Below, in pieces: positions 57,001 to 64,000 of a stretch of 64,000 nt of DNA; the stretch's first letter is position 1; each line of letters opens with the position of its first letter. The position numbers were made by a program. The DNA is taken from the NCBI GenBank assembly GCA_040289515.1, contig PSLI01000004.1, positions 1 through 64,000 of the forward strand, read 5' to 3'. This DNA comes from Candidatus Sysuimicrobiota bacterium. Lineage in GTDB: Bacteria; Sysuimicrobiota; Sysuimicrobiia; Sysuimicrobiales; Sysuimicrobiaceae.

Positions 57001-60000
57001 GACGGGTGGGCCTCCCGCTGTTGCCACACTCTGCGGAGGTGCGGACGTGGGCCGGGCGGACGGCACGCAGCTGGATGTAATCACCGTGAGCGACGAGCAG
57101 GGGCACCAGCACGAGTTCACGGTGCTGGAGTACGTGGAGGTGGAGGATCGGCGCTACGTGGTGGTGGTCCCCACAGACGCCCCGGAGGACGAGGCCGCGG
57201 TGGTCCTGCGGGTGGAGGGCGATACCCTGGTGAGCGTGGACGACGACGAGGAGTTCGAACAAGTGGTGGCCGCCCTGGAGGGTAGCGCCGACGACCTCGA
57301 GGGGGAGGAAGTAGAGGAGGACTCGCAGTAGGGCTGCGGGGTTGGCATCTGGCACACCGGTTGGTGGCCGTTCTGGCCGCGGGAACTGCGGCTTTTGCTG
57401 TGCACGGGTGGAGTGCGCCTGTCTCCAGACAGCCGGTGGTGTTGGTGATCCCGCCCGGGGCGGACGCGTCCTCTGTGGCCGAACGGTTGCACCGGCACGG
57501 GCTGGTCCGCAGCCCCGCCGCCTTCCGGCTGCTGGCCCGCTGGCAGGGTCTCGATGGACGCATCCAGGCGGGTGAGTACCGCTTTTCCGGCGGGGAGAGT
57601 ATGGGTGCGATCCTCCGGCGGCTGGCTGCCGGCGACGTGATTCGGCACCGCCTTGTCCTTCCCGAGGGGCTGTCCGCGCGCGAGCTGGCCCGGCGCCTGC
57701 AAGAACAGAGAGTGGTGGAGGCAGAAGCCTTCCTTGCGGAGGTCCGGCGTGCCCACCGGTACTGGATTCCGCAGATGGAGGGCAACACCACCGGCAGCGT
57801 GGAAGGGTACCTGTTTCCCGACACGTACGAGTTTCCCCGGGGCTACTCCGCGGACCGGGTGGTGGCGGCCATGGTGGCTCGCTTCCATGAGGCCACCGCA
57901 CCCCTGTGGTCGCTGGCCCGGCCGTTCGGGCTTTCACCTCACCAGGTGGTGACCTTGGCCTCCCTGGTGGAGCGGGAGGCCCGGCACGACGGGGAGCGGG
58001 CTCGGATCGCGGGCGTCCTGTACAACCGACTGCGCCTGGGTATGCCGCTGCAGGTGGACGCCACGGTCCTGTACGCCCTCGGCCAGCACAAGGAACGCGT
58101 GCTGTACAGGGACCTGGAGGTGGACTCCCCGTACAACACGTACCGCAGGGTGGGTCTGCCCCCCGGGCCCATCGCCAACCCTGGTCTGGCAAGCCTACTG
58201 GCGGCGTTGCAGCCTGAGGCACACGACTACCTGTACTACGTGGCCCGTCCGGATGGCACCCACGTGTTCAGCCGCAGCCTGGCGGAGCACGAGCGTGCCC
58301 GCAAGGCCCTGCAGAAGTAGGGATGCGGCCGGGCGAGGGTTGGATCCCTCACTTGGCGGTGCTCCGTGTAAGCCACGTCCCCCTGGAGCTGCTGCTTCGG
58401 CGGGGGATTCGGGGCGTGGTGTTCGACCTGGACAACACCCTGGTCCCGTACGGCTCCTGCCACGTCCCGGAGGACGTGCACGAGTGGCTGGAGCGCTTCC
58501 GGGCCTGCGGCCTGCGGGGAGCCGTGGTGTCCAACGCCCTGCCCTGGAGGGTGCGGGGGCTTGCGCAACGCCTGGGCTGGCCTGCGGTGGCGGGCTGGCC
58601 CAAGCCCAGTCCGGCGCGGCTGCGCAGGGCCATGACCGTACTGGGCACCACGCCCGGGACCACCGCCCTCGTAGGCGACCAGCTGTTTACGGACATCTGG
58701 CCCGGGAACCGGTTGGGGCTGTTCACCATCCTGGTGGAGCCCCTGGACCGGCGGGAGTTCCCTACCACCCGCATCAGCCGCTGGCTGGAGGGCCTCGCCG
58801 GGCGCGACAGGATGGCCGAGCAGGGCAGGACTCCGGCGGGGACGGGTTGAAGCACAGCCAGAGCCGGCCATGGCGCTGCGGGACTTCCTGAAGGAGATCC
58901 TGGCCAGCGTGGAAGGGGCGCTGGGGGTGGCGGTCGTACGCCTGGACGGCGAGGTGGTGGACGCCCACACCCTGGACGGGGGTCTGCGGATCGAGAAGGT
59001 CGCTCCGGACCTGGGGATTCTGGCCAAGGTGTCCGCGTACGCCGCCCGCAAGCTGAGCGCCGGCCCGGTGGACTACTCCGTGGTGTCGGCGGAAAAGTAC
59101 GTGCTGCTTTTGTCCGCGGTGGAGGTGGACTACGCTCTCGTGATCGCCCTCCGGCAGGGTGGAAATCTTGGGAAGGCGCGCCTGCTGATGAAGAAGAACC
59201 TGGAACGGGTGGCCGCCCAGCTGCGCAGCCTCGGCTCGTGACCGCTCGACTCTACGGGATCCCGGCGGCCGCGTGGGCTGTGCTGTGCTTTGTGGTGGGT
59301 GCCGCCTGGGCTTCAGGTCTGGCCGAAGGAGAGGCGCTGTTCATCCGCGGACGGTATCGGGAGGCCGCCGCGGCATTCCGCCAGGCGCTTTTGGCAAGGC
59401 CCCGCGACCCGTGGTTGTGGCTGTGGTACGGCGCCTCTTTGGTGCAGGCAGGGGACCTCCGGGGGGCTCTCCACGCCCTCCGGCCGGCCACGGGCTCCAG
59501 CGTGGAGGCGCACGCGTGGCTGTGGGCAGGTGCCGCGTACGAGGGCCTGGGGATGGACAGCCAGGCCCGAAACGCCTACCGGCGGGCATTGGCTCGCAGC
59601 CAGGACGCGGCCTCCGCGTACTGGGCCCGCCGGAAGCTGCGCGCTCTGACGGCAGAATCTGCCCCGGAGCTGCCGGCCACGGACCCCGGCACGTACGAGC
59701 GCCTGGCGGTGCGCTACAACCCGCGGCTTTCCGCCTGGGAGGCCCGCCGCATCGGGCGGGCACTGGTGGAGCTTGGGCGGCACTTCAACGTGGACCCGAG
59801 ACTCACCGCTGCCCTGGTGGTGGTGGAGTCCGGGTTCGAGCCGCGTGCTGTCTCGCCTGCGGGCGCCCTGGGGCTGGGCCAGCTCATGCCCGAGGTGGCA
59901 CGGGCCGTGGCGGTACGGGATCCCTTCTCCATCGAGGAGAACCTGTACGGTACCGTGCGGGTGCTGCGGGGACACCTGGACCGGTACGGTTACCACCGTG

Positions 60001-63000: not shown

Positions 63001-64000
63001 GATGGACGGTGAGGTGTGGGTGCACCCCCTGCCGGAGGAGCTGTTCCCTGAGGAGTGGGAGGACCGAGAGCCCCTGGCGTGGGAGTCCGCACAGGTCGCG
63101 CGCTTGACCCAGCGGGAAGAAGACGGCCCGCAACCCGCCCCGGAAAGCGCGGCCGCGGAAGGCCCGCTGCTGGTTTTGTCGGGCCTACAGCCGCAGCCTT
63201 CCGCGAAGGGGGCCCCGCGCGAGCCGAAGCCCGAGCCCGAGGCCACGGTGGACGTGGTGGCATGGGTGCGGTTGCTGGAGGGCCTGGTGGCGCGGTTCAA
63301 GCGGTACCGGGGACCGACCGCCGCCGGCCGGCTGGAGGCCGAAGTGAACGTGGCCCTGCACGGCAGCGGGCTGAGGTTGCACCGGGGGCGCGTGGAGGGC
63401 CAGGCCCTTGACCCCCAGGTCCTGTCGGCGGCCGTCGTGCGGGCCGTGGGGCTCCTCAAGGGAATGGCGGGGCAAGCCTTCGCGGAGCACAGCGTGAGCG
63501 GAGTCGCCCGCGAGGCAGGCATCCGCGACGAGGCCCCTCTCAAACGCCTGCTGGAGCTGTAAGGAGGTCGCGGGTGCGACAGGTGGCATGGCTGGCGTTG
63601 TCGGTGCTGGTACTGGTCGCGGTGGCCGCGGTGGTGGTGCTGCAGCGGCCCGTCCGGGCGGCGGAAGTGCAGCGGCAGCACACCCTGGTCAGTGCGGGGC
63701 TAGTTTTGTTCCCGCTTCTGGCAGGGGGAGCGGGTTTTGCGGCCGCGCTCAGCTACCGGCCCAAGGACCGGGAGCGGGCAGTGTGGACCAGCTTGGGAGC
63801 CGCCTGCGTTCTATGGGGAACCGGACGGGCGGTGTTCTGGTACGAGCAGGCGGTGGGGCAGGCGCCCAGCTTCCCGTCCGCGGCGGAGCTGCTCACCGCG
63901 GGGTTCTTCGTGTTGGGTCTTTGGGCCGTCTATCAGGAGTACCGCGCTGTGCGGGAGCTGGTGGGGCCCGCCCAGCGGGCGGCCATAGTGGCGGTGGTGT

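Follow-up and report, generated by a model that had tools for sequence, protein, structure and literature searches.

The best-known drivers of pilin gene transcription are sigma-54, acting with PilR, and the cyanobacterial SigF; roadblock proteins are familiar from MglA/MglB/MglC, the polarity module of Myxococcus and Thermus. SigF of Synechocystis PCC 6803 (PMC2532724) and Nostoc punctiforme (PMC6495340) is a group 3 sigma factor that drives the major pilin gene, regulates its own expression and has a small regulon. In Rubrobacter radiotolerans, c-di-GMP restrains a group 3 sigma factor within the complex (RsiG)2-(c-di-GMP)2-WhiG, the predicted targets being type IV pilus and c-di-GMP turnover genes (PMC8325347), and in Clostridioides difficile the c-di-GMP-I OFF riboswitch Cd1 lies over the flgB operon, which includes sigD (PMC6366702). 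PATAN proteins have been reported as binders of the pilus motor (bioRxiv 10.1101/2021.06.11.447907).

Here we describe a gene block of a Candidatus Sysuimicrobiota bacterium whose sigma factor probably turns on type IV pilus genes via its own promoter, and whose sigma relatives in several uncultured phyla appear to be restrained by c-di-GMP, where an anti-sigma factor would be usual. The window analysed is a stretch of 64,000 nucleotides (positions 1-64000 of contig PSLI01000004.1), and contig numbering runs on beyond 64000 for the last genes. The genes named in the initial annotation are in place, and the span holds three more that it had not listed (the lytic transglycosylase and both binding proteins):

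58870-59241, + strand: roadblock/LC7 protein, divergent copy RB1 (Pfam E 0.054; RB2-family profile-profile probability 98.9; family of 23 aligned sequences)
59238-60134, + strand: TPR and SLT lytic transglycosylase (PF01464 E 6.3e-18, with TPR matches)
60193-61317, + strand: branched-chain-type periplasmic binding protein (PF13458 E 8.9e-55)
61459-62451, + strand: TAXI-family solute-binding subunit (TIGR02122 E 2e-107)
62457-62708, + strand: small MerR-type HTH protein without effector domain (PF13411, model positions 26-68 only)
62705-63562, + strand: c12, with a PATAN/DUF4388-like domain, a linker and a helical C-terminal domain (without Pfam or NCBIfam match)
63574-64000 in the window, stop at contig 64347, + strand: c13, stand-alone multi-pass membrane protein (Atlas structure TM 0.84)
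contig 64348-65277, past the window, + strand: c10, with two PATAN/DUF4388-like domains and a winged helix (Atlas features, structure model)
contig 65274-66032, past the window, + strand: group 3 sigma factor with regions 2, 3 and 4 intact (Pfam), its start overlapping the c10 stop
contig 66066-66419, past the window, + strand: roadblock RB2 (PF03259 E 5.6e-17; NF052242 MglB E 5.1e-10, far below cut-off)

The sigma factor has the layout of group 3 of the sigma-70 family, with PF04542, PF04539 and PF04545 all above cut-off within 252 residues (regions 2, 3 and 4, without region 1.1). It had been placed in the SigB/F/G subfamily on its match to TIGR02980; the E value is as reported (3.6e-53), yet the score of 180.6 bits lies under the curated cut-off of 234.35, and the second-best model, cyanobacterial-type SigF NF005644, gives 164.2 against a cut-off of 261. 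In our tree, which is rooted on one sequence and holds no SigF from an oxygenic cyanobacterium, a clade of five named SigB/SigF/SigG references with eight Rsb-linked paralogues (support 0.985) leaves the sigma outside. Moreover, Rsb genes occur in 33 of 61 genomes, where they are associated with a separate sigma paralogue that groups with Lysinibacillus SigB. On cut-off, tree and separate paralogue together we reject a sporulation or general-stress SigB/F/G reading, and the sigma is, judged by sequence, a member of a separate pilus-linked clade, and the only sigma of that type in this genome. Its ORF is intact, with 76-85% identity within the genus. Under the root used, the Armatimonadota form does not join this clade, and the SigF-like proteins of non-photosynthetic cyanobacterial relatives, which score 192-228 on NF005644, lie outside SigB/F/G and are not grouped with the sigma clade either. 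Searches of plasmids, phages and proteins yielded no SigF from an oxygenic cyanobacterium that entered the analysis; a cyanophage match at 54.6% identity was among the results.

SigB, SigF and SigG are recognised by a cognate set of RsbW/SpoIIAB kinase, STAS antagonist and PP2C phosphatase, and this set was not found here. Family searches of this genome (96.7% complete) gave no STAS and no SpoIIE match, which bears out the proposed lack of an Rsb-type partner switch, and for the anti-sigma family PF13581 they gave just five partial matches (E 1.6e-8 to 4.4e-4), none at the level of RsbW. The further claim that there is no anti-sigma factor stands for the Rsb type; as a general statement it goes beyond what this evidence carries.

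Pilus genes lie within 4 kb of the sigma gene in 32 of 38 orthologous loci, a larger set on which the synteny first proposed is upheld. This holds for 3 of 3 loci from other Sysuimicrobiaceae genera and for 29 of 30 from other families (in the single miss the sequence stops 1.1 kb past the gene start), and for none of the five from the genus itself, in agreement with the description of the block as half of a pilus supercluster, separated from the rest. In an AT-rich lineage the sigma gene sits between pilC and pilA, while pilC is directly upstream of the GGDEF-fused Armatimonadota form in 60 of 77 evaluable metagenome loci and of the sigma in all three Atribacterota-type loci. Synteny in four lineages, with a promoter motif ahead of pilins, supports the assignment of the sigma to the type IV pilus system.

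The candidate promoter is GTCT[AG]-N15-GGG[CT]AT. The loci from which it was derived had been picked near pil genes. In 58 loci of other genomes, a spacer of 15 gave 37 upstream-intergenic sites and every other spacer from 11 to 20 gave 0 to 3. Exact matches across 61 genomes number 310 against 100 for the reversed control (302 against 99 without the unpublished genome G023), with as many as 20 sites in genomes of family f4. When the first match per genome is taken (29 loci), 22 are intergenic, eight stand directly ahead of a pilin gene or pilT and three more ahead of a pilin cluster; sites are also found ahead of genes for a LysM-M23 peptidase, for response regulators and for HD-domain proteins. 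In 8 of 12 motif-aptamer pairs, 23-33 nt separate the end of the motif from the core of a c-di-GMP-I aptamer downstream, which is the position expected of a promoter. AT-rich loci of another lineage (32-37% GC) carry the exact motif between the sigma gene and pilA, 40-64 nt upstream of the latter, in 5 of 5 cases. Furthermore, the region 4.2 helix SQ[KR]HVSR goes with GTCTA, whereas the helix S[CV]NY goes with a different pilin motif, AT[CA]TCA-N-TGGAATA (11/12 spacers); the candidate promoter co-varies with the recognition helix between lineages.

With a matrix built without this genome, its major pilin gene ranks first of 1998 genes (23.0 bits), with TPR-PilB at rank 7 and the minor-pilin cluster at rank 13; the pilin motif, whose last base is at C8:27378, is a perfect match and the TPR-PilB site is degenerate. 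DUF1844 (rank 2) and glycogen synthase (rank 3) recur in 5 and 3 related loci respectively, and several genomes of the genus retain their sites. A genome-wide excess of the motif is absent from this genome (1 vs 1, and fewer matrix matches than in shuffles), from Sysuimicrobiaceae (18 vs 21) and from five genomes of other phyla (13 vs 25), and in this genome no site was found ahead of the sigma block, dnaB2-pilT-pilC or the second pil locus, the block genes ranking 99 or lower. The pilin gene is also preceded by a sigma-54-type motif, and rpoN is present in the genome. From the position of the motif we infer that the sigma drives the major pilin promoter, its candidate target.

A c-di-GMP-I riboswitch ahead of the sigma gene had been noted in relatives, and we find that all 30 loci outside Sysuimicrobiaceae have the aptamer at the head of the unit (one being a variant aptamer), directly upstream of sigma in 25 and in front of a pilT-pilU-sigma unit in five. 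None of the eight loci inside Sysuimicrobiaceae has it, and the notion of a c-di-GMP-controlled pilus sigma, which appears to apply to those relatives, consequently does not extend to this genome or its family. Indeed, the reported absence of a riboswitch before the block is confirmed, RF01051 giving no match in the 64-kb window, nor across contig 57999-66699 even at E 10, and the Rfam search at E 10 over the block returning three chance matches only; riboswitch control in this genome is rejected on these grounds. The sole c-di-GMP-I aptamer of the genome is damaged, without a sense gene after it. In 16 of 19 leaders from families f2 and f5, the aptamer 3' strand pairs with the terminator arm better than in shuffles (p <= 0.05), and this predicted pairing suggests an OFF switch in these families; it failed in the other 3 of 19 and in 8 of 8 leaders from f4 and f7, and whole-leader equilibrium folding gave mixed folds on polarity. 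A GGDEF fusion occurs in 58 of the 150 nearest representatives, with RxxD in 50 and GG[DE]EF in none; by these motifs, the Armatimonadota homologues carry a dead GGDEF domain with its RxxD site intact.

Among the neighbouring genes, the weak Pfam match of RB1 is strengthened by the alignment of its family to that of RB2 (probability 98.9 over 117 columns), such that the roadblock call holds. In 32 of 38 loci RB2 follows sigma at a distance of no more than three genes, yet a roadblock gene is absent from the other 6, was not found in four sigma-holding genomes and is lacking in the loci mapped for the other three lineages; we therefore regard the roadblock proteins, previously presented as partners of the sigma, as neighbours and reject an obligatory partnership. 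A complex prediction for the sigma with two RB2 copies scored 0.00 against a mark of 0.32, which is uninformative either way. The MerR-type gene is likewise present as annotated, but its HTH is incomplete and it is no obligatory partner, being missing from two other Sysuimicrobiaceae loci: 15 residues are missing in frame, including a conserved stretch of the recognition helix that is present in 27 of 28 aligned relatives (one of the 28 being a gene called too short). Given this apparent deletion, in which an assembly fault is possible, the present copy is probably inactive.

The N-terminal domain of c12 matches the c10 family (probability 93.2; pLDDT of the c12 model 83), and c12 found no clear PDB match, the best being small helical bundles at Z 7.1. 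For c10, Atlas feature matches reach 0.93 and 0.92, with PatA_N clusters at 0.82-0.86, and winged-helix matches occur in 6 of 18 members; Foldseek gave c10 no match at E <= 0.001, and Pfam did not assign PF14332 (PATAN/DUF4388) to c10 or c12. In shape c13 resembles the sensor domain found in diguanylate cyclases and kinases of actinobacteria, at a TM of 0.84 that is below the bar for naming a family. In the mapped loci c10, c12 and c13 are confined to families f1 and f5. The lytic transglycosylase, found in 25 of 41 mapped loci, possibly opens peptidoglycan for the pilus. Neither binding protein has its transport partner beside it (a permease for the branched-chain type, a transporter for the TAXI protein); the branched-chain-type gene belongs to the block in Sysuimicrobiaceae and part of f5, and in f5 is preceded by its own motif and riboswitch. 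An MglA-type small GTPase found no motif match in the called genes, and PF00025, a general model, gave weak matches only (5 genomes).

Our preferred explanation, which as a whole we consider likely, is that the sigma is a dedicated type IV pilus factor that would read GTCT[AG]-N15-GGG[CT]AT, with the major pilin, minor-pilin clusters, motor ATPase genes and a few others as targets predicted from motif position. In most of the order its gene would be transcribed through a c-di-GMP-I riboswitch that terminates on ligand, so that low c-di-GMP would permit pilus expression, and the sigma seems to activate its own gene as well as genes for HD-domain phosphodiesterase-like proteins, which would close a positive loop. 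In Armatimonadota a related sigma has, in place of the riboswitch, a dead GGDEF domain whose RxxD site is intact, and c-di-GMP control of either kind would replace an anti-sigma of the Rsb type. A co-transcribed accessory module would be formed by the two roadblock proteins together with the PATAN-like proteins, the membrane protein and the orphan binding proteins, and its likeliest target may be the pilus motor. In this genome the block is split from the pil genes, the riboswitch is lost and the MerR gene damaged; consequently, the sigma would be expressed from a position late in a long operon and would read few genes, the major pilin foremost, working alongside sigma-54 as a competitor at the pilin.

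Several alternative hypotheses may explain parts of this pattern. The circuit here could be a decaying relic, the pilin having been taken over by sigma-54 and an NtrC-type activator beside rpoN while the sigma block is being lost. The MerR deletion, the damaged aptamer, a scrambled pilT/pilU pair (C28:7012-7794), the degenerate TPR-PilB site and sigma-54-type motifs ahead of pilin and pilM, in a genome with rpoN and activator, all fit such decay; however, the intact and conserved sigma ORF, the perfect pilin site and the retention of the DUF1844 and glycogen synthase sites in the genus make it unlikely. Those same two sites, with the ones ahead of the LysM-M23 peptidase, response regulators and HD-domain proteins, the abundance of sites in f4 and a -10 element resembling the Bacillus subtilis SigB consensus (PMC2532724), could instead point to a broader lifestyle or stationary-phase sigma with pili as just part of its regulon. 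We hold this to be improbable, given that, in the sets examined, no class of targets is larger than that of pilins and motor genes, that the gene lies in pil clusters in four lineages, and that many genomes have a separate Rsb-linked SigB.

It might also be supposed that the roadblock pair, PATAN-like and membrane proteins together hold the sigma, as an anti-sigma or relay of a non-Rsb kind, which the proximity of RB2 and the co-transcription of a sensor-like membrane protein with orphan binding proteins would allow. The loci, genomes and lineages without a roadblock gene, the restriction of c10, c12 and c13 to two families, and the reported binding of PATAN proteins to the pilus motor (bioRxiv 10.1101/2021.06.11.447907) render this distinctly improbable. 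Finally, the motif may be real but read by another sigma (a 221-residue sigma on C59, a FliA-like gene on C28 or a SigB paralogue elsewhere), since such candidates exist and the pairing of sigma and promoter is itself inferred. Yet the motif is retained in genomes without STAS, differs from the flagellar consensus TAAA/GCCGATAA (PMC8325347), changes jointly with the recognition helix between lineages and, in the AT-rich lineage, directly follows the sigma gene, and we regard another reader as very unlikely.

Returning to the dedicated pilus sigma, a wider and more speculative reading, to which we give somewhat less than even weight, is that it represents an old and so far undescribed lineage spanning Sysuimicrobiota, Vulcanimicrobiota, Armatimonadota and Atribacterota, ancestrally placed behind pilC and never Rsb-regulated. 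Control by c-di-GMP would have been gained more than once, as an OFF riboswitch with phosphodiesterase feedback in one phylum and a fused c-di-GMP-binding domain in another; cyanobacterial SigF may be a branch, and the roadblock-PATAN-membrane genes may provide the pilus motor with a polarity module that works without a GTPase.

Cyanobacterial SigF is alike in being a group 3 sigma with the major pilin as target, autoregulation and a small regulon (here predicted from the motif), in a -10 element that begins GGGT, in NF005644 being the nearest named model after TIGR02980, and in that the canonical SigB/F/G clade likewise excludes the SigF-like proteins of non-photosynthetic relatives. It differs in its upstream element (TAGGC, against GTCTA here), and the present sigma scores under the SigF model cut-off (164 against 261); the pilus-clade gene is placed within the pil cluster and either follows a c-di-GMP riboswitch or carries a fused, dead GGDEF domain. 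WhiG of R. radiotolerans shares the restraint of a group 3 sigma by c-di-GMP, with predicted pilus and c-di-GMP enzyme targets, but belongs to the flagellar clade, reads the TAAA/GCCGATAA promoter and has an anti-sigma protein to hold it, whereas control here is by riboswitch or fused domain and the promoter differs. Cd1 of C. difficile offers a class I riboswitch with a motility sigma gene terminated at high c-di-GMP, as predicted for the pilus-sigma relatives, although SigD is flagellar and encoded within a 23 kb operon, and C. difficile pili are switched on by c-di-GMP via a class II switch, opposite to our prediction. SigB/SigF/SigG with RsbW/RsbV or SpoIIAB/SpoIIAA have the same region 2-3-4 layout and a similar -10 element, but the present sigma scores under their cut-off and outside their clade, and partner-switch genes, not found here, are carried with a separate paralogue in relatives. 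The MglA/MglB/MglC module resembles the block in its two roadblock paralogues by pilus genes, DUF4388/PATAN-like neighbours and a TPR domain on PilB, and differs in that an MglA-type GTPase was not found in the 5 genomes searched and the MglB model score is far below cut-off. A pilus sigma lineage with a specific, testable promoter is thus indicated in four poorly cultured phyla, providing a natural series for c-di-GMP reaching a sigma without an anti-sigma, by riboswitch, by fused binding domain or, in this genome, by neither. As every part has a precedent, the gain lies in new wiring and a wide family rather than in a new principle.

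The sigma factor gene of this genome (1.99 Mb, 70% GC, completeness 96.7%) belongs to a block of ten co-directional genes that is real, conserved and linked to type IV pili. Its order is RB1, TPR-SLT, two binding proteins without transporters, MerR, c12, c13, c10, sigma and RB2, where RB1 and RB2 are roadblock proteins and c10, c12 and c13 are accessory proteins of unassigned function. Gene calling relied on a purpose-written codon-usage script, and some gene starts are therefore approximate. The window is C13:1-64000; sigma and RB2 lie past its end on the contig.

C13:58870-59241, RB1, roadblock protein, first gene of the block
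C13:65274-66032, sigma factor, ninth gene, same direction
C13:66066-66419, RB2, roadblock protein, tenth and last gene
C62:62253-68759, TPR-MshEN-PilB, DnaB-like, pilT and pilC genes, the separated pil half in this genome
C62:62253-64607, PilB-type ATPase that carries TPR repeats at its N terminus plus an MshEN domain, kept in most families
C62:64807-66369, protein ending in a DnaB-like helicase domain; the usual N-terminal domain has no match in Pfam

Evidence for the pilus link comes from 41 loci (up to 20 kb) in 38 genomes, picked among the best sigma matches for contig extent and family spread, from which three extra-copy loci were removed. In 32 of the 38 loci counted, pilus genes are found no more than 4 kb from the sigma gene: 0/5 in this genus, 3/3 in other Sysuimicrobiaceae and 29/30 in other families. 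In this genus the pil half of the supercluster sits away from the sigma block, which agrees with the initial annotation's description of a displaced half; its main idea, that the sigma factor belongs to the pilus locus, holds for the lineage, and its family name and riboswitch claim for this genome need correction. The DnaB-like gene heads the pilT-pilC operon in families f1, f5 and part of f4, and its product might link the pilus with DNA uptake. Some f5 copies of TPR-MshEN-PilB have a further c-di-GMP-I aptamer upstream.

The association extends beyond the phylum. Five loci with a GC content of 32-37%, labelled Vulcanimicrobiota (three), Synergistia (one) and Bacillota (one), have the order pilB-pilT-pilC-sigma-pilA-pilD-pilMNOPQ as far as their contigs extend, and the four included in our sigma tree cluster together. 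In three Atribacterota-type loci pilC precedes sigma; in these (L288, L290, L293) a sigma fragment of 182 residues, comprising region 2 only, stands immediately 5' of the full sigma, with DUF6982 genes and pilins after it. Among the nearest 150 sigma representatives at 50% identity, 58 have a GGDEF-like domain at the C terminus; of these 58, 50 keep RxxD and none GG[DE]EF. Members of this fused form that carry a taxon name are Armatimonadota, and of 80 metagenome loci found with this form, 77 have sufficient sequence and 60 of those 77 have pilC immediately upstream.

Other pilus loci of this genome include a pilB/pilT/pilU remnant that is scrambled and contains an internal inversion (C28:7012-7794), where the tandem pilT-pilU pair is intact in close relatives; a second pilB-pilC-pilin locus lacking the candidate promoter described below (C8:64846-71290); a long cluster of minor pilins, pilD and pilMNOPQ with one weak promoter site and one sigma-54-type site (C22:11643-27275); and a major pilin followed by three membrane glycosyltransferase-like genes, a pairing repeated in relatives (C8:27491-32409). 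Where no Pfam match is cited, pilD, pilMNOPQ and PATAN are labels that we assigned by recognition.

RB1 is a true roadblock, as had been called. Roadblocks lie near the sigma gene in most loci, yet their proposed role as its partners is not general, since they are missing from 6/38 sigma loci and from the mapped loci of lineages beyond Sysuimicrobiota; a search of 31 genomes found none in seven, of which four hold a sigma orthologue and three lack it in the assembly. Our searches turned up no MglA-like GTPase for them. Among mapped loci c10, c12 and c13 are restricted to f1 and f5; c10 and c12 have a PATAN/DUF4388-like domain in common, PATAN regulators reportedly binding the pilus motor (bioRxiv 10.1101/2021.06.11.447907), and c13 looks like a membrane sensor domain with no output part. 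The MerR of this genome lacks 15 residues of its helix-turn-helix. The block is preceded by genes that we take to be alaS, ruvX (both by recognition), DUF1292, mltG and yqeG. Downstream (C13:67223-71330; L001:11224-15331) are presumed MoaD/ThiS-like carrier, cysteine synthase-like, JAB-like and Rrf2-like genes, then what we take to be an ECF sigma and a small cysteine-rich anti-sigma-like gene, all labelled by recognition; this cluster adjoins the sigma block only in this genus.

The sigma factor had been assigned to the SigB/F/G subfamily. TIGR02980 is indeed its best match (E 3.6e-53), but the 180.6 bits fall below the cut-off of 234.35 and the protein lies in a separate clade, and we therefore reject membership; the next-best model, cyanobacterial-type SigF, gives 164.2 against a cut-off of 261. 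A FastTree tree built from 174 sigma domains places all Sysuimicrobiota pilus-linked copies in one 44-sequence clade (support 0.974) and five named SigB, SigF and SigG references with eight Sysuimicrobiota paralogues in another (0.985); under the root used, the GGDEF-fused form is a further, separate clade (0.98). The deep branching order is uncertain, given a single FliA-like root sequence and the omission for size of roughly two in three long representatives. Genus g18 has the sigma gene tandemly duplicated around MerR, and f5 has extra copies away from the main locus; several of these copies have the candidate promoter just upstream (L064, L065, L059, L067, L069, L384-L387).

That candidate promoter, GTCT[AG]-N15-GGG[CT]AT, was first spotted as GTCTA-N15-GGG[CT]A 5' of f5 sigma genes. 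Across 58 loci from other genomes, partly overlapping and enriched in pil genes, a spacer of 15 gave 37 upstream-intergenic sites, and spacers of 11-14 and 16-20 gave 0-3 each. Genome-wide tests are less biased: the exact motif occurs 310 times in 61 genomes, versus 100 for a reversed control (302 versus 99 without the unpublished G023). The first match per genome, G023 excluded, gave 29 loci, of which 22 are intergenic and seven inside coding sequence; eight stand immediately before pilin or pilT, three more before a pilin cluster and four before response regulators. A further 36 hand-picked sites, eight of them in coding sequence, added pilins, pilT and HD-domain regulators. The AT-rich loci carry the exact motif 40-64 nt 5' of pilA in 5/5 cases, with a spacer of nearly all A/T. 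Five genomes (three AT-rich, two Atribacterota-type) yielded 13 matches versus 25 controls; six of the 13 are intergenic, and five of these six precede a pilin or pilin-like gene, although two such proteins had no Pfam match at 1e-4. L290 has GTCTA-N14-GGGAAT before a pilin. Loci with the GTCTA motif encode a region 4.2 helix of sequence SQ[KR]HVSR; in the fused form this helix is S[CV]NY, and 11 of 12 pilin spacers there contain AT[CA]TCA-N-TGGAATA.

Neither this genome nor Sysuimicrobiaceae shows a genome-wide excess of the motif, and no site was found before the sigma block of this genome. Of 34 sites in ten Sysuimicrobiaceae genomes 20 are intergenic (five pilins, one TPR-PilB, five DUF1844, three glycogen synthase, six other or no gene). 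A matrix built from 42 sites, all in other genomes, ranks the major pilin (C8:27491-27889) first among the 1998 genes of this genome, followed by DUF1844 (2), glycogen synthase (3), TPR-PilB (7) and a minor-pilin cluster (13). In L200 (G010) the motif lies 199 nt 5' of a FliA/WhiG-like sigma gene, a possible sign of a sigma cascade; the site overlaps a same-strand gene call.

Control by a c-di-GMP-I riboswitch, also proposed earlier, applies outside the family only: an aptamer heads the sigma unit in 30/30 loci beyond Sysuimicrobiaceae and in 0/8 within, this genome included. Aptamers were counted by sequence pattern, which agrees with Rfam on loci checked with both, one variant aptamer being added from a separate result. 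Here the genes from MerR to sigma overlap or almost touch, leaving no space for a leader RNA. In 16 of 19 f2/f5 leaders the aptamer 3' strand and the following hairpin (5' arm plus loop) pair better than in 200 doublet shuffles (p ≤ 0.05); eight f4/f7 leaders showed no such pairing, and the pattern missed five leaders. This pairing implies read-through without ligand and termination with it; as equilibrium folding of whole leaders was mixed, we infer that the f2/f5 riboswitch would be an OFF switch. The promoter motif also precedes the sigma gene's own leader in f5, plus GAF-HD and receiver-HD genes; by activating the HD-domain genes, sigma would create feedback if their products are c-di-GMP phosphodiesterases, as PF13487 suggests. 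The sole aptamer in this genome (C36:41851-41925, L072) scores 46.7, and five bases are missing from its second stem. In this genus the site has a c-di-GMP-I aptamer, intact in four relatives (L075, L076, L077, L079), with a sigma-70-type promoter upstream (by eye in this genome), a terminator-like hairpin and no sense gene behind it, and it faces the end of an oppositely oriented gene; it may represent either a relic or a free-standing RNA that binds c-di-GMP. This genome still has GGDEF domains, and its second PilB retains one full MshEN motif.

A lack of any anti-sigma factor had also been claimed. Family searches of this genome gave no STAS and no SpoIIE match, as stated, and five partial PF13581 matches, which rules out the Rsb type but not every anti-sigma. 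STAS is present in 33 of 61 genomes (G023 included) and in none of Sysuimicrobiaceae; the best PF13581 match is no better than 6.7e-13 in the 28 STAS-less genomes and 8.6e-23 or better in all 33 others. In eight STAS-bearing genomes examined, the second sigma adjoins an anti-sigma-like or STAS gene, and the partner switch therefore belongs to another paralogue, not to the pilus-linked sigma. As for sigma-54, rpoN occurs in Sysuimicrobiaceae and 8/9 f2 genomes and was not found in 17 f4/f5 genomes searched (G023 included). Sigma-54-type motifs precede the pilin and pilM of this genome and, by eye, the f2 sigma leaders. In f2 (L139, L140, L141, L180) the gene for an NtrC-type sigma-54 activator, which in G036 is close to rpoN, has the candidate promoter upstream; together, these motifs make a mutual activation loop possible.

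Within a search that covered few subscription journals, we found no paper on this sigma clade, its promoter or the GGDEF fusion. The main text of two papers on the phylum (PMC11604079, PMC11962464) lacks the words pili, pilus, sigma and c-di-GMP, and their supplements may list pil genes. Among known systems, SigF of Synechocystis regulates its own expression and recognises TAGGC/GGTAA at pilA1 (PMC2532724), Nostoc SigF has a very small regulon that includes pilA (PMC6495340), Rubrobacter type IV pili are under RsiG-c-di-GMP-WhiG control (PMC8325347), and Cd1 is an OFF switch over sigD (PMC6366702).
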